From IMG/VR virus record IMGVR_UViG_2690316115_000020, positions 1 through 23,060 of that record: a stretch of 23,060 nt of DNA; one strand, written 5' to 3'. The stretch's first letter is position 1. Each line of letters begins with the position of its first letter. Origin of the DNA: a virus. Lineage: Duplodnaviria > Heunggongvirae > Uroviricota > Caudoviricetes. A model generated the notes under the pieces. It saw only the letters and a program-made list of their open reading frames with translations. It made no database searches and was not told the origin of the DNA. The translations under genes were made by a program, and so were the position numbers. Shown in pieces: positions 14,153 to 23,060 of the stretch.

Positions 14153-15046
14153 TTATTTTTTTGCCTTTTTAGCGGCGAAATACGGCGTCCAGTCACCAGT
14201 TTCCAGCACCTTGGCTTTCAATTTGTCGAGGTTGTTGATTACTGCGCCGTTGCTCCCCTTAACTGTCGGGGTTGTGGCTGCCGTGGTTTTTGCTTTTGGC
14301 ATGATTCTGGCCTTCGATTCGATACGTTCCAGCAGACGACCAATTGCTACGGGGTTGGTAGCTTCTGCCAGTTGCTTGCGCAGTTCAGCGTTGCGACCGA
14401 GTGCCAGAACAACGATTTCCGGCTTCTCTGACTCAAACAGGATCGCGTTTTGTGTCTCGATGGGAATTTCCTCGAGTACGGCCTGCTCAGCTTCCTGATA
14501 GCCAGGAACTTTGAGAGCCTTAACACGTTGCTGATATTTGGATAATCGCTCTTGATAGGCAGCCTGAAGCTCCTGCTCCTTCTGCTTGCGAGCCATCTCC
14601 TGTTGCTGGTACTTTCCGTTATCCTCTGCCCACTTAGCCATGCGTTGCTGATAGATTTCTTCATCGAAACCGATGTCCTCATCATCCAGTTTTGGCATTC
14701 GCGGTGGTTGAGTGATTACCGGCTGCTGCTCGACGGGTTTCTGAGACTGACGCATCAGCTCTTTCAGCTCGCGGTCTTTCTCTTTAATCGTCTTGCGCAG
14801 GTGTTTTACCAGTCCATGCTCTGCGCTATCTTCGCTGGTTGGCGAATCCAGCTTTTCGTCACCAAAGTAGAATTCCTGTTCTGATTCGTCGTCATCAGTT
14901 TCAGTAGCTTCCTCTGCATCATTGCCGGAGGACTCACTGCCATCTTCTGTTTCGACTTCTTCAGCCAGTTCGACATCATCAGGAATCTGCTCTGACGCGT
15001 CGGTTTCGATTTCAACTTCTGGTGTGTTTTCTGCCATCTGGTCCAT
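14153..15046 (-). CDS. Scaffolding protein, P22 gp8-like
   Basis: 297 aa (P22 gp8 about 303 aa), highly acidic N-terminus (EVEIETDASEQIPDDVELAEEVETEDGSESSGNDAEEATETDDDESEQE), helical charged middle and basic C-terminus. Lies between the portal and coat genes. Confidence 0.8.
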   Translation of the reverse strand: MDQMAENTPEVEIETDASEQIPDDVELAEEVETEDGSESSGNDAEEATETDDDESEQEFYFGDEKLDSPTSEDSAEHGLVKHLRKTIKEKDRELKELMRQSQKPVEQQPVITQPPRMPKLDDEDIGFDEEIYQQRMAKWAEDNGKYQQQEMARKQKEQELQAAYQERLSKYQQRVKALKVPGYQEAEQAVLEEIPIETQNAILFESEKPEIVVLALGRNAELRKQLAEATNPVAIGRLLERIESKARIMPKAKTTAATTPTVKGSNGAVINNLDKLKAKVLETGDWTPYFAAKKAKK

Positions 15047-15136
15047 TTGTTACCCCTGTTTACTCGATGTTCAGCCCATCGGAAGGCAATAGGGTGCCTG
15101 GCCTCATAAAGACAGCCATTGCACGTTATGGGTTAA

Positions 15137-17335
15137 TTACTGCTGTGGTTGTTGCTGAGTTGATTTTTGCAGGATGCTGCTGATGTCCATGCGCTGCGCA
15201 TGGCCCTGTGCCTGACTTTTCAGGACAAGCTCTGCATCAGCACGGGCATTGTCTCCTTGCTGTTGCTGGAACTGTCCGAGCAGTTTCAGAGCCTCGCGGA
15301 TATCAGATTTCTGCTGGCTATCGGCAGATGCGAGGATTTTCACAACGTTTGCCGCTGCAACCTGAGCATCAGTCTGTGCCTGGAATGCTTTAACCTGAAT
15401 GGCTGCCTGTTCGTTCTGCGCTTTCTGCAATTCAGCCTGACCAGCAAGAAGCTGACCTTGCGCTGCAACCATAGCCGGATCTGGCTGACTGGCCTGTTGT
15501 TGTTTCGCCTGTTCAACCATCTGCTGTTCTTCAGGCGTTCTCGGCTTGATAACTCCAGACAGAAGCAACTGATTGCGGTTGTATTCTTTCAGGTCGTCCA
15601 TCCCTTCGCCGTCCATATTGTCGAGAATCATCGACGATACAAGGTCGTGCTTCGGCGTTCCTGGTGGGATAAGTGCCAGCATGGAAAGTAACGACTTAAC
15701 CGTTGCATCACGGCGAGTAGCGAACGACTGACCGACATCGACAGTCACTTCATAGTTACCCTGCGAAAGGTCATTAAGCGCGATAACCTGCCCTGTCTGA
15801 CGGTCAACCACTTCACCAGTCATCAGCGCCACGTCATCGCTGCCGTCCTCATTAACGATACGCATCGGCGTATCACTGCCATAGACCTCACGCGCCATAG
15901 AAAGCCACACAACGCCAGCGCGACGCATGGATTTAGCCATGTTGTCCATGTAGATATAGGACTGCGTATCCATCCGGTTAAAGATGCTATCAACGGTATC
16001 GGTGGCGACGTTGCTCGGCATGTTCTCAAGCTGCGACGCACCTGTAATTTGCTGAATAGCCGTTCCGGTGTACTGCAATAGCCCGGCAAGAGCTGGAGGC
16101 ATTTGTGTCGGAGGCGTATAACTGCTGACCTGAGCCTGCGCAGTAATATCTCCGTTTTTGTTTTTCAGACTGACCATCGGCAGGAACGCCGGGCGCTTTT
16201 TGTTGCGCTCCGCCCAATGAGTGGCGAGAGGACCAGGAATCATGTCAACATCAACTACAGGAATGCCATCACCGCCAGCCTGAGTGGCGTTATCTGCAAT
16301 CATGGAAACCATCAGGTTCTCAAGACGCTGTGCATCCATCGCTTTTGCTGCGTGGCCTTCGATTCGCTCCTGATTATCAACAAATGAGCGACGCCCATAT
16401 ACCGGGATGAGAGGAATATGTTCGCCCGGAATACGCTTCGGTTCTTCCAGCCATTCAGCGCCAGACAGAAGACCGCAATAAACGCGGCGCTTCTTCACCG
16501 TTCGCTCGCCAATCAGTTCGAATGCACCATCGGTCAGCTCGTCGACAATATCTTTGATTTGATCTTCATCATAGATTGCCGTTTCTCCGCTAACAGGGTT
16601 ACGCCATGCTGTGAGCTTCACCTTCTCTATGCGAACTTCGTAGTAGCGACCAACATAGATAGCATCAGGAGTTGACCAGTCATATTGAGTGCCAGTGTCA
16701 TCACGAGAAAGGCTTGCCGCGATGGAATCAGGGTATTCAGCCTCGAACGCTTTAGGCGTCATGGAGAACATTTCCATAGCCCACATAGCATCGGAGCGGT
16801 CATATTGCTTGCTGTCCTGATCGAAGAAGACGCATATCGCTGGGTCGTAAACAGGAAGAAGGCTGATGCGTCGCTGCTCGTTACTCGGATCCATTTCATC
16901 TTCGTAATCGGCACACATGCGGAAACAACCGAATCCGCCCGTTACAGCATCATCAAATGCGTTATCACACGCTTCACCACCGGATGTTTCCTGATAGTCA
17001 GCGCGGAATTTGCCGTTCATCTTTTCGGCTAACGCTTCCGATGCCTTATCGTCCTTCGGCCTGAATTTAACGCTGATGCGATTCTGTCGATACTCGCCAA
17101 TGATGCGATCACATTCACGGGCAATCTTATTTAGTTCAAAGCGCGGGTAATGCTCAAACCTGCCTTCATCAAATGAGTAACCAGCGTTTGTGCTGCCTTC
17201 CCACTGTGCGCCGGACACCCGGACGAAACGTTGAGCCTCAATAATCTGCTCACGCATATCCTGCGTTGCTGACCAGGCATTATCAAAGTTGCACAGCACC
17301 TTGCGATGCCAGTCAGTCATCTTTTTTTCTGCCAT
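15137..17335 (-). CDS. Portal protein, P22 gp1 homolog
   Basis: 732 aa (P22 portal about 725 aa). Segments matching recalled P22 portal: GEHIPLIPVYG, PRTPEEQQ, DPAMVAAQGQLLAGQAELQKAQN, DNARADAELVLK, QRMDISSILQ, ending in a glutamine-rich C-terminal barrel-like tail. Confidence 0.9.
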   Translation of the reverse strand: MAEKKMTDWHRKVLCNFDNAWSATQDMREQIIEAQRFVRVSGAQWEGSTNAGYSFDEGRFEHYPRFELNKIARECDRIIGEYRQNRISVKFRPKDDKASEALAEKMNGKFRADYQETSGGEACDNAFDDAVTGGFGCFRMCADYEDEMDPSNEQRRISLLPVYDPAICVFFDQDSKQYDRSDAMWAMEMFSMTPKAFEAEYPDSIAASLSRDDTGTQYDWSTPDAIYVGRYYEVRIEKVKLTAWRNPVSGETAIYDEDQIKDIVDELTDGAFELIGERTVKKRRVYCGLLSGAEWLEEPKRIPGEHIPLIPVYGRRSFVDNQERIEGHAAKAMDAQRLENLMVSMIADNATQAGGDGIPVVDVDMIPGPLATHWAERNKKRPAFLPMVSLKNKNGDITAQAQVSSYTPPTQMPPALAGLLQYTGTAIQQITGASQLENMPSNVATDTVDSIFNRMDTQSYIYMDNMAKSMRRAGVVWLSMAREVYGSDTPMRIVNEDGSDDVALMTGEVVDRQTGQVIALNDLSQGNYEVTVDVGQSFATRRDATVKSLLSMLALIPPGTPKHDLVSSMILDNMDGEGMDDLKEYNRNQLLLSGVIKPRTPEEQQMVEQAKQQQASQPDPAMVAAQGQLLAGQAELQKAQNEQAAIQVKAFQAQTDAQVAAANVVKILASADSQQKSDIREALKLLGQFQQQQGDNARADAELVLKSQAQGHAQRMDISSILQKSTQQQPQQ

Positions 17336-17336
17336 A

Positions 17337-18752
17337 TCAACCTACACCACAAGGAATTGAGTAACTGGAATAGTCGGTTTGCGCAGCCGACTCCGGGCAA
17401 TGCATACACATCATCAACGCATCAGCCAGGTTAGGAGATGGGATCCCGAGCTTTTGCTTCATTTCGACCTTAGTCATAAGCTCCAGCTTCCCGTTGTTAT
17501 TGAATTTGCGCTGAATCTGCGTCAGTTCTGCAAACAGCTTCTCCAGCATCTTCTCGCCTATCGCTTCTTTGTCGAAACTCAGCATGTCGTCGGGGTCTGC
17601 ATACTCACCGTGGGCAACCGCCCGATATGTCAGATACAGCCTGTCAGCCAGCGCGTAATAGAATTGCGCTCGCTTATTGCGGAATACATCGCCAATAGTG
17701 CGAACGTTGTCGCCCTGTACGACTTCATCAGCCCATGCTCCGGCCTGATACGGAGCATCTTCATCGAATGGCGATTCGCTGCCCTTAAACATCGTGGCGG
17801 TGATTTTCTTACCGGAGAATGCTTCCGTTGTCTGTCTGCGTAGCCCGGCACCAACGCCATCGCCATCCCACAGGTAGTGGTCAGCGCCGTCTTCAATCGC
17901 CAGAGAAGTAGCCCAGTCAGCACCCTCGTTGATGTCCATCAGTAGACCTTCGGCAATGCGCTTAACCACCGAACCGTGACGCGATGCATAACCTTTAGCA
18001 TCTGGCCCTGTATCTGATGGGTCATGCGCAGAGACAACAGCGCCTTTCGCTTTCCATCCGAGTTTCTTGTGCGCATCGGTAGCAGCTTCAAGCCATTCAC
18101 GTTTGATGATTGCCATATCACTTGCGCTTACCGGCTCACCAAGCCAGATGTGACGATACAGTGTCGGATTTCTGCGTTTGCACTCTTCCATCTCCAGACA
18201 GAGAACTTCAGGAAAATGCGGGTTGTCGGTGTAGTTCACCGTCAGCAGGCAAATATCATCGGGAGGATTTACAACGAATCGCTGATAGGTATCGTCGAGG
18301 ATGTTCTTCGGGTTAAAGCTCACCCATATTTCAGAGAACGGCTTGCGGATGGTTGGTATCAGGATATCCCACGATTCCTTTGTTACCGCTTCCGCTTCTT
18401 CCACCCAGCAGATATCAATGCCTTCGAGCGATTTAATCTTCGTCGGGTTGTTTTTGATGCCGTAGAACATGAACTCAGCATTCGTTCCGAGATGACGAAT
18501 CATGGAACGCTGAATTTCAAACTCAGCCGAATACCCCTCCCGCTCTATGGTGTCTTCAAGCAACCGGATTACTGAATCGCTGATACTGTTTTGCAGTTCA
18601 CGAGCGCAGAGAATACGCACAGGCTGCCGACGCGCCGCTTCAACAAGAAGCCTCGCAATTGCCCATGACTTACCGCTACCTCGACCGCCTTTGGCGACTT
18701 TGTAGCGATGCGCCTCAATGAACGGTTCAAAGATAGGATTAATCGAGGTCAT
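17337..18752 (-). CDS. Terminase large subunit
   Basis: 471 aa; Walker A KGGRGSGKSW near the N-terminus (MTSINPIFEPFIEAHRYKVAKGGRGSGKSWAIARLL...). Size and N-terminus match Sf6-type large terminase as recalled. Start overlaps the small-subunit stop by 4 nt. Confidence 0.9.
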   Translation of the reverse strand: MTSINPIFEPFIEAHRYKVAKGGRGSGKSWAIARLLVEAARRQPVRILCARELQNSISDSVIRLLEDTIEREGYSAEFEIQRSMIRHLGTNAEFMFYGIKNNPTKIKSLEGIDICWVEEAEAVTKESWDILIPTIRKPFSEIWVSFNPKNILDDTYQRFVVNPPDDICLLTVNYTDNPHFPEVLCLEMEECKRRNPTLYRHIWLGEPVSASDMAIIKREWLEAATDAHKKLGWKAKGAVVSAHDPSDTGPDAKGYASRHGSVVKRIAEGLLMDINEGADWATSLAIEDGADHYLWDGDGVGAGLRRQTTEAFSGKKITATMFKGSESPFDEDAPYQAGAWADEVVQGDNVRTIGDVFRNKRAQFYYALADRLYLTYRAVAHGEYADPDDMLSFDKEAIGEKMLEKLFAELTQIQRKFNNNGKLELMTKVEMKQKLGIPSPNLADALMMCMHCPESAAQTDYSSYSIPCGVG

Positions 18753-19189
18753 TTTCCGAATAGATTGCTCATCGGTGATGTTTCAATCTGGATTGCGCCG
18801 CCGTCTTTGCCTGTTAGCTCGTGATCAACCTTGTCGCGCCATTTATCCTTCTGTCGGTTCTTAAGCCAGAAGATGGCGGCGGTTGTATCAGGCGGGTAAT
18901 ACTTCTCAAGCGGAGTTTCGACAATTCTGTTTTCAATAACACGAATATCGATGTCTGGAGCCACGAAGCCCATAGCGCGTTGATAAAGACGGTCACTAAC
19001 TTCTGCATCAGCGACGGCCTTACCCTTTTTTATGGACTCCGAAAACTCAGGATAATCAAGCTTCCACTTGTTAATAGTTGACTCACTGACTTCGAAGAAA
19101 TCAGCAAGCTCTGCATCGGTGTAGCCCAGCAAGCACAGTTTGCGTGCCTGTTCGGCGTACGCCTCTTGATACTTTGTTGGGCGCGCCAT
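18749..19189 (-). CDS. Terminase small subunit
   Basis: 146 aa immediately upstream of and overlapping the large terminase gene; helix-turn-helix-like N-terminal region (AELADFFEVSESTINKWK). Confidence 0.75.
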   Translation of the reverse strand: MARPTKYQEAYAEQARKLCLLGYTDAELADFFEVSESTINKWKLDYPEFSESIKKGKAVADAEVSDRLYQRAMGFVAPDIDIRVIENRIVETPLEKYYPPDTTAAIFWLKNRQKDKWRDKVDHELTGKDGGAIQIETSPMSNLFGK

Positions 19190-19191
19190 GT

Positions 19192-19434
19192 TTATGCTCC
19201 GGTAGTGAACAGGTCTAACGCTTCCTTCGATTTACGCACCGCTTCGATAGTGCGGGTCGTGATATCTGAATTAGCGCCGCCTGACTGGAAGTGAATTTTG
19301 AATAGCTCAAGCTTCAGCTCGTCAGTACCAATGAACTGAAATGCTTCCTCTGCGGCTGCGTTCTGGTTCATGACCAGTTTGTAAATCTCTAACTGGAATT
19401 TCTGTTCTTCAGTCATGGGAATAATCTCTGCCAT
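19192..19434 (-). CDS. Hypothetical small protein (80 aa) upstream of the terminase genes
   Basis: ORF with GGAG 7 nt upstream of its ATG (minus strand); its stop abuts the terS start. No recognisable motif. Confidence 0.55.
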   Translation of the reverse strand: MAEIIPMTEEQKFQLEIYKLVMNQNAAAEEAFQFIGTDELKLELFKIHFQSGGANSDITTRTIEAVRKSKEALDLFTTGA

Positions 19435-19882
19435 TGTTGGCTCCGTTTATCCGTTAAAAGGGATATCAGTTAAGTTATCCCGTGTAGGGTATAAGCCATT
19501 GTCGAGACCACTCATTGAATGGTCTCTGCAATAACCGATGTCTTTCCATCAGTCCGCCACCACAAAGAATCTTTTTTTGCCATAAGGCAGGAGGTTCATC
19601 TTTCAGTGGCTGCCAGTGTTATTTCCCCACTTTCTGGCTTGGGTTGTTTCGCTGTACTGCCGTAACTGGTTGCCCAGAATAAATTCCGGTTTCATTATCA
19701 AGCCCACCCGTAGATAGGCTTTGTAATGAACTGGCTCTTATCTCAACGCAGCCCCTTACCGCGCGCCAGATGCTCAATATCAAGCATCAGCAATGAGATG
19801 TTTAATCTGGATTCACTCCAGAAGTGATCACCATCCTGTCTACAGAGCCAGATGTGAAGGATGATGAGTAAAATTATCGCTA

Positions 19883-20350
19883 TCATCTAAGGCATTGCGT
19901 CCTGATGTATTCCTGAAGCGCTCTCAGTGCTGTTTGGTCGCGGATAATTCCGTCCCGGATACCGAGAACGTTTCGTCCAGCAACTGGAGAGAGTTCGACG
20001 GTGGCATCATTGCCCATGCCGGAGGCGCTGGAGGTTTCGGCTGAGGATGGCACAGGGCATTTTCCTTTGACGAGCACCCTGCCACCATTATCAAGCTTGC
20101 GCCGAAGAGCATCATTTTCAGCTTTCGCATCAGCTAACTCCTTCGTGTATTTAGCATCGAGTGCATCAGCAGAACGCTGGCGCTGCTGCATGTCAGTAAT
20201 GGTGGCGGTCGCCTGCTTCAGTTCTCTGGCATTTTTGTCGCGCTGGGCTTTGTAGGTAATGGCGTTATCACGGTAATGATTAACAGCCCATGACAGGCAG
20301 ACGATGATGCAGATAACCAGAGCGGAGATAATCGCGGTTAATCTGCTCAT
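19883..20350 (-). CDS. Rz: Rz i-spanin (inner-membrane spanin subunit)
   Basis: 155 aa; N-terminal transmembrane segment ([20 protein letters not shown]) followed by a charged coiled-coil region. Start overlaps the endolysin stop. Contains the embedded Rz1 frame. Confidence 0.9.
19924..20130 (-). CDS. Rz1: Rz1 o-spanin (outer-membrane lipoprotein), embedded out-of-frame within Rz
   Basis: 68-aa ORF entirely inside Rz in another frame; [21 protein letters not shown] has a lipoprotein signal with lipobox VAGC, followed by a proline-rich stretch [16 protein letters not shown]. Resembles recalled lambda Rz1 (MLKLKMML...VVGCTS...PPPPPAW). Confidence 0.85.
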
Positions 20351-20823
20351 ACCTCAATCTCTCTTACCGTTCCGCCAGCTTCTTTGAATTTTGCAATCAG
20401 GCTGTCAGCCTTATGCTCGAACTGACCGTAACCAGCCCCCGGCAGTGAAGCCCAGATATTGCTGCAACGGTCGATAGCCTGACGAATATCGCCGCGATCA
20501 ATCATTGGTAAAGCGCCACGCTCTTTAATCTGCTGCAGCGCAACAGCGTCCTGGCTTTTGGGAGAGAAGTCTTTCAGGCCAAGCTGCTTACGGTAGGCAT
20601 CCCACCAACGGGAAAGAAGCTGGTAACGTCCGGCTGCTGTTGATTTGAGTTTTGGGTTTAGCGTGACAAGTTTGCGAGGGTGATCGGAGTAATCAGTGAA
20701 TAGCTCTCCGCCTACAATGACGTCATAACCATGATTTCTGGTTTTCTGCCGTCCGTTATCAGTTCCCTCCGACCACGCCAGCATATCGAGGAACGCCTTA
20801 CGTTGATTATTGATTTCCACCAT
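20347..20823 (-). CDS. R: Endolysin, lambda R-type lytic transglycosylase
   Basis: 158 aa; [53 protein letters not shown]... is essentially the lambda R sequence as I recall it, including the catalytic Glu in [10 protein letters not shown]. Confidence 0.95.
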
Positions 20824-21130
20824 CTTCTACTCCGGCTTTTTTAGCAGCGAAGCGTTTGATAAGCGAACCAATCGAGTCAGTACCGATGTAGCCGATGAAC
20901 ACGCTCGTTATATAAGCGAGATTGCTACTTAGTCCGGCGAAGTCGAGAAGGTCACGAATGAACCAGGCGATAATGGCGCACATCGTTGCGTCGATTACTG
21001 TTTTTGTAAACGCACCGCCATTATATCTGCCGCGAAGGTACGCCATTGCAAACGCAAGGATTGCCCCGATGCCTTGTTCCTTTGCCGCGAGAATGGCGGC
21101 TAACAGGTCATGTTTTTCTGGCATCTTCAT
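20807..21130 (-). CDS. S: Holin, lambda S-type, with dual-start motif
   Basis: 107 aa; [62 protein letters not shown]... matches lambda S as recalled. Met1-Lys2-Met3 is the classic antiholin/holin (S107/S105) dual start. The 3' end overlaps the R start by 17 nt, as in lambda. Confidence 0.95.
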
Positions 21131-21136
21131 GTCTTA

Positions 21137-21150
21137 CCCCCAATAAGGGG
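21137..21150 (-). promoter_or_regulatory. sdi-like RNA stem-loop at the holin translation start
   Basis: Minus strand CCCC-TTATT-GGGG(G) immediately upstream of the S ATG; the 3' arm forms part of the GGGGGTAAG Shine-Dalgarno. In lambda the equivalent structure is known to control the choice between the Met1 and Met3 starts. Confidence 0.6.
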
Positions 21151-21570
21151 ATTTGCTCTATTTAATTAGGAATAAGGTCGATTACTGATAGAACAAATCC
21201 AGGCTACTGCGTTAAGTAATCAGATTTGTTCGTGACCGATATGCACGGGCAAAACGGCAGGAGGTTGTTAGCGCGACCTCCTGTCACCCGCTTTCACGAA
21301 GATCATGTGTAGAAGGCCGCAGCATAACTATCACTGATGAATTCAGGACATCCAGTGGCTACGGCTCAGTTTGGATTGTGGCGACCGGTGCTGATCTCCG
21401 GTTTGCTGCAACTGCCTACAGCGGGCTACGTGGCCACACCGAATCCAGCGAAAGATTCTTGCCCTTACACATCAGCCTGTGCATTCACCACAACGATAAG
21501 AGCACTGCGCGGCACCTTTCACCAATTCCGCGAGGTCTGAGGGTTCAATGCTCTTACCTGTTGTGCAAAC

Positions 21571-21612
21571 AAAAAAAGCCACCGTTGCAACTTAAGAGTC
21601 ACTAACGGCAGC
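21571..21612 (-). terminator. Candidate tR'-like intrinsic terminator downstream of the late promoter
   Basis: Minus strand: GCTGCCGTT ... AACGGTGGC imperfect 9-bp stem (two G-U pairs, long loop) followed by TTTTTTTG, then TGCACAACAGGTAAGAGCATTGA, which I recall from the lambda tR' / 6S RNA region. Loop length and exact pairing are uncertain. Confidence 0.45.
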
Positions 21613-21622
21613 TTATGCGAAT

Positions 21623-21651
21623 AGTGTTGCTCATTTGCTCAATGATGTCAA
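21623..21651 (-). promoter_or_regulatory. Candidate late promoter pR' (with Q-utilisation site expected nearby)
   Basis: Minus strand TTGACA (21651-21646) starting 6 nt after the Q stop codon, 17-nt spacer, then weak -10-like AACACT (21628-21623). Position between Q and the terminator is as expected for lambdoid late promoters. The -10 is poor, so the assignment is tentative. Confidence 0.3.
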
Positions 21652-21657
21652 CACGTT

Positions 21658-22146
21658 CTACGCTACATGTTTAATTTTCTCTACACGTTTCCGGTTTTTA
21701 AACGCACTATCCAGAACCGGGTAAATCATAAACAACGAGGCATTGAGGATTTCGTCAACTTCCCGACGACAGGTTGCGAGCGATGGTTTTTGAATGCGCC
21801 CGCCGCCCCGGCATAACATCTTGCGAGGTCTTGCGACGCGATGATAGTAAGATGCAATGGCGTGCTTGGAAGAACCGTGGGCGTAGTAGCTGAGGAGGAT
21901 GCCAAAGGCTTTCTTGTCAATGTACATGACGGAATCGACGACCTGAGAAATCAACATTCCATCATCATCATTGCACATCGGCCTTGTCATAACTCTTCCC
22001 GGCTCTACGCTCTCCATGAACTTCGCTATTACGCTGCTCATGCGCTTTTCAAGACGACCTGAATAAACCCATGCTCCCCACAGTTCAAGCCAGCCATTCA
22101 GCCAATCGTGCTGCTCTTTGGTGAGGTTTAGTTCTCTTATGCTCAT
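21658..22146 (-). CDS. Q: Late-gene antiterminator Q (phage-21-type Q family, distinct from lambda Q)
   Basis: 162 aa directly upstream of the late promoter and lysis cassette. Motifs LELWGAWV and TRPMCNDDDGMLI resemble the recalled E. coli prophage Q-family antiterminator QuuD (LERWGAWA, RPQCCDDDAMII). Confidence 0.75.
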   Translation of the reverse strand: MSIRELNLTKEQHDWLNGWLELWGAWVYSGRLEKRMSSVIAKFMESVEPGRVMTRPMCNDDDGMLISQVVDSVMYIDKKAFGILLSYYAHGSSKHAIASYYHRVARPRKMLCRGGGRIQKPSLATCRREVDEILNASLFMIYPVLDSAFKNRKRVEKIKHVA

Positions 22147-22331
22147 CGTCTTCCCCTCTTGCCCTGTTTGACCATCAGGACGCCGTTAACTATTACATGA
22201 CGCTCGCCTTTGCTGTCTCGGTTGTACTTGAGCACTGTTCCTCTTGCGCAGGAAAGCATCCTCGCCACTTCGGTCTGATTGCCTCGTGTCTGGATAAGAA
22301 GCTCTGGTATCGTTTGAATTGTGGCGTTCAT
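22143..22331 (-). CDS. ninH: NinH-like small DNA-binding protein
   Basis: 62 aa; TIPELLIQTRGNQTEVARMLSCARGTVLKYNRDSKGERHVIVNGVLMV matches recalled lambda NinH (TIPDMLVEAYGNQTEVARRLKCSRGTVRKYVDDKDGKMHAIVNDVLMV). Stop overlaps the Q start by 4 nt. Confidence 0.8.
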   Translation of the reverse strand: MNATIQTIPELLIQTRGNQTEVARMLSCARGTVLKYNRDSKGERHVIVNGVLMVKQGKRGRR

Positions 22332-22690
22332 ACGTTCTCCAGTTCGGTGATTTTTATTCCAAGCCTTCCGCCTGGTACTTTCACGCCACGAATTACGCGA
22401 ATGTCATCGAATTGCTCGTCGTCTTCCGCAAATCCGGCGTGGATAAGGGAGTCGAGTAAACCTTTAAGAATGTTGTCGAGGTCGCGGCGGCGGGAGTCTG
22501 GAACGTCTGCGATGACTTTGATTCGTAGTCGTGATTTGGTGAAAATGTCTAACTTGAGTTGGCGGATGATTTGCTGAACGTCTTTTCGGTATTTCTGGCC
22601 TTTATCGCTGATGTAGTATTGGCTTCCCCGTCTTCGCCAGTAGGTGTTCACCGACGGCGGGTATGGAAGCACAAACTGATATTCGTTCAT
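22328..22690 (-). CDS. rusA: RusA-family Holliday junction resolvase
   Basis: 120 aa; LPYPPSVNTYWRRRG...DVPDSRRRDLDNILKGLLDSL...GGRLGIKITE matches the recalled RusA pattern (LPWPPSNNRYY...PDRRRRDLDNLQKA...GGRLELTITE). Confidence 0.85.
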   Translation of the reverse strand: MNEYQFVLPYPPSVNTYWRRRGSQYYISDKGQKYRKDVQQIIRQLKLDIFTKSRLRIKVIADVPDSRRRDLDNILKGLLDSLIHAGFAEDDEQFDDIRVIRGVKVPGGRLGIKITELENV

Positions 22691-22977
22691 GACTTAATCT
22701 TCCCCTCCTTCAGCAGTATCGCCTGCGTCCTGATCACGCCTTCGAGGTGGTAAAGTCTGGCGTCTTTGTTGTCGAGATTATAGGTGCGTCGGTCGATTTC
22801 ATCGTGACACGCGCTACAAGCCCATGCGCCGATCAGGTCGTCAGGCTTCATTCCCGTTCCGCAAATTCCAGCCATCCGGTAATGTGCCAGAACTGTAGTT
22901 TCAGGATTGCCATTGCATACGCCGTAAATACGTACCTGGCATTCTCTGCCGCGTGCTTCTTTGCGTAGATTAGCCAT
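22687..22977 (-). CDS. YbcO-like nin-region protein (DUF1364-type, Cys-rich putative metal-binding nuclease)
   Basis: 96 aa; MANLRKEARGRECQVRIYGVCNGNPETTVLAHYRMAGICGTGMKPDDLIGAWACSACHDEIDRR closely resembles recalled DLP12 YbcO. Conserved Cys/His (C..C...C..CH) are present. Confidence 0.75.
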   Translation of the reverse strand: MANLRKEARGRECQVRIYGVCNGNPETTVLAHYRMAGICGTGMKPDDLIGAWACSACHDEIDRRTYNLDNKDARLYHLEGVIRTQAILLKEGKIKS

Positions 22978-23060
22978 TAAGCAGCCTCCCCTGTTACTTT
23001 CAGCATTCCGTTATCGAGCAGCTTTCTGGTCAGCCACTGTTGACCACGCCCGGTGATTTT
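22977..23060 (-). CDS. 3' end of an upstream nin-region ORF (truncated by window edge), unidentified
   Basis: Minus-strand open frame entering from the right window edge and ending ...KITGRGQQWLTRKLLDNGMLKVTGEAA-stop. Its TAA overlaps the ATG of the YbcO-like gene (TAATG), indicating coupling. Too short to identify. Confidence 0.5.
   Translation of the reverse strand, partial: KITGRGQQWLTRKLLDNGMLKVTGEAA

Follow-up and report, generated by a model that had tools for sequence, protein, structure and literature searches.

An empty accessory-gene slot with a repeated, covarying stem-loop downstream of the lysis genes of a P22-like phage

A gap of 448 bp separates the lysis gene Rz from the next solid gene, a DUF2560 gene, in a virus sequence of 23,060 nucleotides (Caudoviricetes; IMG/VR record IMGVR_UViG_2690316115_000020, called the window below as a whole). 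The gap is an empty slot with a structured, untranslated spacer, and it carries two copies, H1 and H5, of a covarying hairpin, the CATTA stem-loop, which is repeated at cassette boundaries in related phages. Variable phage regions of this kind are known and ordinary; the present one is the empty allele and contains a previously unremarked structured boundary element. At a probability of about 0.6, the gap is read as an unoccupied slot for accessory genes (morons or anti-defence genes), with the hairpins as homologies for cassette shuffling and probably also as processing or stability elements of the late mRNA.

A sequence-only reading of the window had noted some 450 bp without a credible open reading frame (ORF) between Rz and the next gene, and had offered a decayed moron, a small RNA (sRNA), or a regulatory or recombination region as explanations. 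The distance was correct. The last explanation fits best, as breakpoints with more than 100 related phages cluster here and cassettes sit at fixed points.

Structure and variation of the CATTA stem-loop

The element comprises about 39 nt (38-43) and folds in two tiers. A 6-bp lower stem is followed by a 2x2 internal loop (CA/GA), an upper stem of 9-10 bp and a loop of 3-6 nt. The lower stem reads CATTA/TAATG, in H5 TTATTG/CAATGG, while the sequence of the upper stem differs between families. Most H1 copies, including that of the window, have a UACG loop. H1 and H5 were recognised as copies of one element from the ends of cassettes; a third form, family B, closes the cassettes at one of the insertion sites (site C). 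Three inverted repeats had been reported from the sequence alone, and all were found at their coordinates: GGGATA/TATCCC at 19460-19481, followed by TTTT on the minus strand, GAGACCA/TGGTCTC at 19508-19530, and GATGCT/AGCATC at 19769-19788. The first forms part of a longer inverted repeat, H6, the second is the upper stem of H5, and the third lies inside a 47-aa ORF. H1, the strongest hairpin, had been missed.

Among 47 distinct variants, 95.3% of the cells were paired, compared with 32-51% when the partners were slid. Changes on both sides were found in 8 of the 16 pairs, and covariation amounted to 0.416 versus 0.251 in shuffled alignments, none of 500 shuffles reaching the observed value. 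RNAalifold recovered the same two-tier fold. Three compensatory pairs occur in a single copy from contig L048. H5 has one more A-U pair than family B, along with an A-U to G-C switch in the lower stem. A copy in contig L082 (30 bits), found by the covariance model only, has a completely different yet paired upper stem. In a hybrid variant, the 5′ arm of family B is combined with the 3′ arm of H5.

The fold is far more stable in the sense of the late transcript, because about 15% of the paired cells are G-U. Sense and antisense values are -20.4 and -12.4 kcal/mol for H1 and -23.9 and -15.3 kcal/mol for H5, a difference of about 8 kcal/mol. All 154 model hits, from 94 loci, are located on the late-operon strand.

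A model search of the window revealed no copy beyond H1 and H5; a hit of 10.7 bits (17309..17277) lies inside the portal gene. The right arm of lambda (40-48.5 kb) yielded no copy in a model search. HK97 has only two copies, both after the lysis genes. A weak additional hit in HK97 (18.9 bits, E 0.015; L151:27563-27591, minus strand) is located at the gp48/gp49 junction. In this hit the lower stem and the internal loop are preserved (UCAUUACA..GAUAAUGG), with only 13 nt for the upper stem; it may be a chance match or a degenerate copy in the early left region. Two further copies, L048:5006-5043 and a reverse-strand copy at about 5079-5116 of L082, reside in the Q-holin slot beside an HNH (NUMOD4-like) gene; in L048 a second, terminator-like hairpin comes after. 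The element is therefore not confined to one slot. A limited literature search found no description of the hairpin family, and a search with sequence strings of the element returned only unrelated primer matches. The transcriptome papers on BTP1 and LF82 give no coordinates for this site.

Cassettes and junctions in related phages

The variability of this region in P22-like phages is well known. Pairwise alignments covered 10 annotated records and about 130 further contigs, and loci were retrieved by an exact 18-mer from the core, a non-coding piece of the spacer. The alignments are mosaic with recurrent junctions, and cassettes are located exactly at the hairpins in more than 100 lambdoid phages (P22-like, HK97-like and Stx phages). 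For the count of breakpoints, each of 111 distinct architectures was taken once. Within H1 or H5 (±3 nt) fell 156 of 273 breakpoints (57%), with 20% expected from length, a descriptive figure since the events are not independent. Most other breakpoints are located in H2, at the core start or beside H6.

Cassettes of 548-768 bp occupy site A (19729..19720), either inserted or replacing the sequence down to 19663-19670. They encode Rha (PF09669), a Tad2-like anti-Thoeris protein (PF11195), KilA-N or proteins without a family; other records have GIY-YIG, HNH and anti-CRISPR proteins by annotation. These cassettes are flanked by a 10-bp direct repeat, TCATTACAAA, identical with the lower arm of H1 on the 5′ side and present once in the empty window. 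In cassette-bearing relatives, the left copy of the repeat is followed by a canonical terminator (AGCCTCGCATTCGCGGGGCT plus a T-run), which is absent from the window. At site C (19537/19536 to about 19499), H5 gives way to cassettes of 129-413 bp. The unit consists of a gene and a family-B copy of the CATTA element; the genes belong to the N4 gp49/Sf6 gp66 family (Phage_gp49_66), DUF551 and others. The stop codon of several independent cassettes precedes the hairpin by about one nucleotide. Shorter stretches are replaced at about 19679 and 19483. In the Stx phage JLK-2012, H1 is fused directly to the sequence after H5 and everything between is deleted. A simple scan detected no cassette promoter next to the element in cassette-bearing relatives.

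In the window, in SEN22 and in the ST131 prophage every site is empty. The slot of the window has no extra gene, and the alignment runs across the insertion points without the cassettes of the relatives. The proposed decayed moron was not recovered either: the window is a clean empty allele, in which the 10-bp junction repeat occurs once and no remains of a gene were recognised.

Two products encoded in the slot equivalent to about 19725 of the window (L010:1090-1569 and L002:1840-2361) carry the PGAP label 'DUF2829' (hypothetical in Kapi1) and match the Tad2-like Pfam family with E values of 6e-22 and 4e-26. Phage Huey has annotated anti-CRISPR proteins in the post-Rz slot. Given the Tad2-like and anti-CRISPR cassettes, the post-Rz slot looks like an anti-defence hotspot in P22-like phages.

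Coding capacity of the gap

The sequence-only reading had seen only ORFs of 30 codons or fewer, which is wrong, as ORFs of 47, 54, 55 and 48 aa are listed (Table 1). A 47-codon ORF with a weak coding signal, orf47, abuts Rz; the absence of a credible ORF holds for the remaining ~300 nt. An intact known small gene filling the region would have spoken against the sequence-only reading; an annotated small ORF does so in part only, covering 144 of the 448 bp.

The translation of orf47 matches phrog_11822 (E 2e-34, residues 1-47 to profile positions 4-50 of 50) and no Pfam family. The family comprises the 50-aa product of Sf6 gene 65 and, as other members, Kapi1_042 and PGAP WP_001139681; its annotation is hypothetical. 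The 50-aa form starts with ATG CCT TCG ATG in relatives and reads ATG CCT TAG ATG in the window (MP*, then MIAII..). As codon 3 is TAG, only the ORF of 47 aa from the internal Met is left. The C-to-A exchange that gives TAG (19887-19889, minus strand) is synonymous in the frame of Rz, CGA to AGA for Arg. The observations suggest that selection acts on Rz and not on the small ORF. Codon variants in 33 distinct sequences of the family were synonymous in 10 cases and non-synonymous in 21. Diversity at codon positions 1, 2 and 3 was 0.032, 0.016 and 0.031, the third no higher than the first. All 44 phage homologues (44/44) are at least 90% identical. Hence orf47 is regarded as an annotated small ORF with a weak coding signal and of doubtful coding status. 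In SEN22, an IS-like element with a frameshifted transposase sits in the small ORF (L004 285-1432, window equivalent about 19866-19872). About 7 bp (19866-19872) align on both sides of this insertion, which looks like a target duplication.

The remaining ~300 nt are non-coding, because the small ORFs are broken by indels in relatives. Candidate small proteins of the spacer (30-aa MKPEF.., 35-aa MAKKIL.., 54-aa TTG, and plus-strand 48 and 55 aa) were rejected on account of frameshifting indels, A-run changes and start-codon loss in relatives. The run 19578..19572 has seven A here, six A in nearly all relatives and five A in a few. With this length polymorphism, no ORF across the run stays intact on either strand, the plus-strand ORFs included. 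An ORF starting at ATG 19695 is disrupted in relatives by a CAGTT(A)AC indel.

On another explanation, the spacer would be what is left of an accessory gene after decay (a pseudogene or decayed moron), with incidental hairpins. The ORF from ATG 19583 is in line with it, being open for 35 codons in most relatives and frameshifted here by the seventh A of the run; 'orf-118' of ST64T-type phages is an in-frame fusion of this ORF with DUF2560, and a truncated DUF2560 in HK97 shows that gene decay does occur at the locus. The ATG, however, is preceded by CCUCC instead of a ribosome-binding site and is lost in some relatives (ATG to AAG), and A-run changes are found in several relatives. A PHROG search returned no match to the spacer ORF translations, including those of 30, 35 and 54 aa. 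Compensatory changes and strand asymmetry of the hairpins would not survive decay, and the junction in the empty allele is clean. Decay is an improbable origin of the spacer.

The ST64T 'orf-118' (L005:1347-1703; also L008:1355-1711) results from a 37-bp deletion (19482..19446), which fuses the upstream ORF in frame to DUF2560. ORFs of this type, 118 aa in length, consist of DUF2560 and a 38-codon N-terminal extension. Since the internal GGAG and the DUF2560 ATG are kept, the extension looks like an annotation effect, and the true start is probably the internal ATG. HK97 (L006:1495-1630; 38957-39092) keeps the spacer and the first 27 codons of DUF2560 (MAEIILMTEEQKFQLEIYKLVMNQNAA) and diverges just before gene 74 (HNH). 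This DUF2560 piece is an unannotated gene remnant in a gap of 650 bp.

Folding and conservation of the spacer

The 308-nt non-coding part was predicted to fold with -105 kcal/mol on the minus strand, with a z-score against shuffles of -6.1; the plus strand has a z-score of -3.8. A 300-nt folding window placed on the spacer (z -5.4) gave the strongest fold tested across the 23 kb. Among 114 regularly spaced folding windows, the lowest value (z -5.1) was again obtained in the spacer region, with a mean of -0.57 and a standard deviation of 1.34 for all of them. The predicted structure of the spacer exceeds chance.

H2 is the most variable piece of the spacer, with a diversity of 0.16 for 19689..19663. 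Relatives have a replacement of 57-68 bp with a junction at about 19679 (indel junctions 19676-19680), and the replacement contains other hairpins. The core, which includes an imperfect hairpin, H3 (19610..19556), and the A-run, showed a diversity of only 0.018 (27 loci, contiguous homology). Values for the adjacent DUF2560 gene in these loci were 0.131 at third and 0.024 at second codon positions. The core is retained next to a wide variety of cassettes on both its upstream and its downstream side. Some Stx phages lack it, and it is deleted in JLK-2012. Its conservation suggests constraint; recent recombinational spread and sampling bias could also give low diversity. H6 has 19-nt arms with 74% complementarity. 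Its upper stem is the GGGATA/TATCCC hairpin (19481..19460), which is followed by UUUU (19459..19456), and its fold reaches -9.2 kcal/mol (z -3.4). The 37 bp at 19482..19446 are missing in ST64T-type phages.

The core (19662..19537), alone or with H5 and H6, might be an independent sRNA gene or an RNA domain cut from the late transcript, e.g. a sponge or regulator. Its low diversity relative to third codon positions of the neighbouring gene and its retention next to many different cassettes, with none of its ORFs conserved, would agree with such a role. The other late moron slot, downstream of pR′, is known to harbour prophage sRNAs (PMC4104026). There, between Q and holin, the anti-sRNAs AgvB and AsxR and related sRNAs are equipped with promoters and Hfq-type terminators of their own (Tree et al., 2014, PMC4104026). 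Like these, the core is a non-coding element at a conserved position beside a moron insertion site in the lambdoid late region. The slot is different, and the Rfam models of AgvB, AsxR, STnc100 and Esr41 miss the window. A scan for sigma-70-like promoters found none in the gap on either strand, and the lone terminator-like hit is weak and located on the plus strand inside the core. A search with Rfam 15, including AgvB, AsxR, STnc100, Esr41 and Proteo-phage-1, gave no match at the gathering score in the whole window. The best match in the gap was Proteo-phage-1 (16.8 bits versus a cut-off of 42, E 3.7), with only noise up to E 10. By itself the core folds no better than shuffles (z -1.0), and its complementarity to the rest of the window is at chance level. 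In addition, it is deleted in JLK-2012-type Stx phages, and the loci were picked by a core 18-mer, which biases the sample. The small RNA considered in the sequence-only reading is rather unlikely on these data.

Two other candidate functions were rejected. The sequences GGAUAAAC and UACGGCAGU had suggested an RNA anti-CRISPR (solitary CRISPR repeat); local alignment with repeats of types I-E and I-F gave scores within the shuffled range. As for long-range pairing, the spacer matched other stretches of the late transcript over 9-11 nt only, at chance level.

Terminators and DNA sites

The hairpins could be intrinsic terminators that shield the packaging genes from transcription in the prophage state (moron promoters or leaky pR′) and are read through by the Q-modified polymerase. 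H1, H5 and H6 fold stably as GC-rich stem-loops. H1 and the family-B copies have GC-rich stems followed by UUGAUAAU or UUUGAUAAU, and UUUU follows H6. The annotators of HK97 placed many putative terminators between late genes, and morons classically end in terminators according to the passage of PMC4104026 that cites Juhala et al. (2000). A U-run is lacking after H5 (tail CGACAAUGG) and H1 (tail UUGAUAAUG), and UUUU is present only at H6, behind a 6-bp stem with a 10-nt loop. A U-tract is likewise missing from the ends ..GGUCUCGACAAUGG of H5 and ..GCAUCCAUUAAUGG of the L082 copy. A terminator scan of the minus strand between 19000 and 20400 detected no terminator-like site and did not call H6, so that none is predicted on the late-transcript strand of the gap. 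Cassette-bearing relatives have a separate canonical terminator directly beside the CATTA element, which makes the element additional to the terminator. Because H5 and the L082 copy are devoid of a U-tract and a separate canonical terminator adjoins in relatives, the CATTA hairpin is not an intrinsic terminator. Shielding of the packaging genes by terminators is an unlikely function of the hairpins.

A further proposal regards the hairpins as DNA sites of a dedicated cassette-moving enzyme, such as an attC-like recombinase, an IS200/IS605-type transposase or an HNH/GIY-YIG nuclease. The unit of gene plus hairpin recalls the promoterless gene cassettes of integrons, each of which likewise has an imperfect palindrome, attC, at its 3′ end. 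The site-A cassettes lie between copies of a 10-bp direct repeat, and HNH and GIY-YIG genes are found in or beside some cassettes. Integron attC sites are 57-141 nt long, whereas the CATTA element has 38-43 nt and its fold favours RNA: owing to the G-U pairs, it is much weaker as DNA or on the opposite strand. The flanks of the element (CATTACAAA ... TTGATAATG or GTTATTGCAG ... CGACAATGG) do not resemble the attC core sites RYYYAAC ... GTTRRRY. Most cassettes have neither nuclease nor recombinase, and the junctions resemble homologous exchange between diverged copies, including the hybrid element of family B and H5. No tyrosine recombinase or integron integrase was noted among the ORFs listed for 14800-23060, a region for which, as for the rest of the window, no dedicated screen was made. 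Enzyme-specific DNA sites are a very improbable explanation.

Comparison with known systems

The closest analogue of the slot hairpins is the PeSL (promoter-early stem-loop) element of T4-type phages. PeSLs are stem-loop intergenic motifs, which flank non-essential ORFs in hyperplastic regions (PMC2839356, Arbiol et al., 2010; PMC4122927, Comeau et al., 2014). They are composed of a strong sigma-70-like early promoter and an efficiently terminating stem-loop. Recombination between copies accounts for insertions, deletions and replacements in related phages (PMC2839356). Likewise, the CATTA element is a conserved stem-loop in a hyperplastic region, where it flanks non-essential ORFs and coincides with recombination junctions. 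It differs in that no promoter was found in the gap or beside the element in relatives, in the hairpin without a terminator U-tract, and in its location inside the Q-antiterminated late operon of temperate lambdoid phages.

Lambdoid boundary sequences are short, conserved sequences at mosaic module junctions and have been proposed to guide homologous exchange. Clark and co-workers in 2001 and Casjens and co-workers in 2004 reportedly described such boundary (linker) sequences for HK620 and Sf6. The CATTA element shares the short conserved sequence at module junctions. Boundary sequences are not known to have been defined by conserved secondary structure. The Sf6 boundary sequence bsq7 is located in Rz and not in the spacer, and none is annotated over H1, H5 or H6 in Sf6.

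With the lambdoid morons, as far as PMC4104026 reports them from Juhala et al. (2000), the slot has in common that it takes single extra genes between essential late genes. Canonical terminators before or after some of the cassettes in relatives are a further resemblance. Differences are that the window holds the empty site only and that the simple scan found no cassette promoter.

The two-tier stem with a small internal loop, located between cistrons on the mRNA-sense strand, resembles RNase III hairpins of the T7 R1.1 type. As in such a site, the CATTA element has two helical tiers on the mRNA strand, of 6 bp and 10 bp on either side of the 2x2 internal loop, and its sense strand is more stable by about 8 kcal/mol. 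T7 R1.1-type hairpins have helices of about 20 bp or more and an asymmetric loop. The CATTA element, in contrast, has a shorter helix and a symmetric 2x2 loop, and there is no sequence similarity.

Gene order and relatives

All genes in this part of the window are encoded on the minus strand (Table 1). The DUF2560 gene is recognised by its Pfam family (E 1e-43), and the alignment columns CGGAGCCA..CAATGGCAGAGATTA, which cover its Shine-Dalgarno sequence and start codon, are invariant in 10 of 10 phages. By nucleotide matches, the window groups with P22-like (Lederbergvirus) phages and prophages from E. coli, Shigella and Salmonella. The same spacer sequence follows the lysis genes in P22-like and HK97-like phages, ES18 and Stx phages. 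As the block follows the lysis genes in HK97-like siphoviruses, ES18 and Stx phages with quite different packaging genes, the element belongs to the end of the lysis region and not to the packaging module. An 801-bp query around the slot has part matches in 2632 of 5426 complete E. coli genomes, i.e. about half. A scan of genome contigs with the 18-mer gave mostly chance matches, real ones being limited to Shimwellia and E. coli.

Table 1. Features of the lysis-packaging region of the window
Feature	Position	Strand	Remarks
Q-like gene	22146..21658	minus	
Holin	21130..20807	minus	
Lysozyme	20823..20347	minus	
Rz	20350..19883	minus	Rz1 nested inside
orf47, 47 aa	19886..19743	minus	ATG overlaps Rz stop
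Gap ORF, 54 aa		minus	TTG start
Gap ORF, 55 aa		plus	TTG start
Gap ORF, 48 aa		plus	ATG start
H1, CATTA copy 1	19692..19729	minus	TCATTACAAAGCCTATCTACGGGTGGGCTTGATAATGA; -20.4 kcal/mol, z -6.7; 59.8 bits, model R1
H2, small hairpin	19674..19689	minus	CCGGAATTTATTCTGG; predicted fold
Core, non-coding, 126 nt	19537..19662	minus	contains imperfect H3 and A-run
H5, CATTA copy 2	19496..19534	minus	TTATTGCAGAGACCATTCAATGAGTGGTCTCGACAATGG; -23.9 kcal/mol, z -6.6; 59.2 bits, model R1
H6, long imperfect inverted repeat	19447..19494	minus	19-nt arms
Shine-Dalgarno GGAG and ATG of DUF2560	19444..19441 and 19434..19432	minus	downstream end of spacer
DUF2560 gene, 80 aa	19434..19192	minus	
Small terminase, Sf6-type	19189..18749	minus	
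Large terminase	18752..17337	minus	

Several observations concern neighbouring genes and records. Rz holds a mosaic boundary (about 19918-20121): the identity to Sf6 is 77% upstream of about 20121 and 96-97% from 19918 onward. In several contigs, 19919-20120 is swapped for about 193-196 bp of other sequence, and the Sf6 record has 'bsq7; boundary sequence' annotated within Rz. ARAGORN found no tRNA or tmRNA gene in the whole window. The close relatives Sf6, Kapi1 and ST131 prophage have tRNA-Thr and/or tRNA-Asn just upstream of holin (window equivalent 21131-21657). The Sf6-type small terminase gene is labelled 'HNH homing endonuclease' in phiv205-1 (L001:3031-3471) and 'hypothetical protein' in the ST131 prophage (L009); both labels look like mis-annotations. 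Contigs L013, L015, L020, L022 and L023, from metagenome-assembled genomes named Cellvibrionaceae, Bacillota and Collinsella, gave long high-identity alignments to this E. coli phage region and are probably mis-binned or contaminant phage contigs.

Proposed function and significance

In lambdoid phages, the slot lies within the late operon, with the lysis cassette on one side and the packaging genes on the other. On the DNA level, the repeated hairpins and their half-sites may provide short homologies for annealing recombinases of the Erf, Red-beta or RecT type, by which phages that share little else would acquire, lose and swap cassettes. Experiments with E. coli LF82 have yielded hybrid phages that arose at short homologies near Rz (PMC9928086). 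On the RNA level, compensatory changes, stability on the sense strand and the UACG loop make a role in the Q-antiterminated late mRNA most likely. The hairpin would likely act there as an intercistronic processing or stability element, of the type of an RNase III site or a 3′-protective hairpin, and would insulate the message of each cassette.

Several points weigh against this interpretation. Related sequences are 90-99% identical and comprise three or four hairpin lineages only, hence the independent compensatory events are few. The variants were gathered by a pattern that fixes the flanks of the lower stem, so that conservation there is partly by construction, and the retrieval of loci by an exact 18-mer from the core biases the sample to close relatives. 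For a classical RNase III substrate, a helix of about 16-18 bp in total is short. The model leaves the conserved 126-nt core unexplained, and the spacer could owe its low diversity to recent recombinational spread instead of selection.

A more far-reaching proposal is tentative. The CATTA stem-loops might be functional punctuation of a gene-plus-hairpin cassette system for accessory and anti-defence genes in lambdoid late operons, i.e. an RNA processing or insulating signal of the late transcript and a recombination handle in one, at the post-Rz and Q-holin slots, with cassettes (Tad2-like or anti-CRISPR genes, for instance) hopping between unrelated phages. If true, the element would be the temperate-phage counterpart of the T4 PeSLs or a loose analogue of integron cassettes, and the hairpin model could serve as a beacon for new anti-defence genes.

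For the window itself, the puzzle of the gap is mostly removed. The gap is neither a hidden gene nor a tRNA nor a known sRNA, but a vacant slot, which relatives have filled, in part with anti-defence genes (Tad2-like anti-Thoeris, annotated anti-CRISPR). The covariance model could be applied to list accessory cassettes across thousands of lambdoid prophages. The region offers a concrete example of how short structured repeats might drive the mosaicism of temperate phages.

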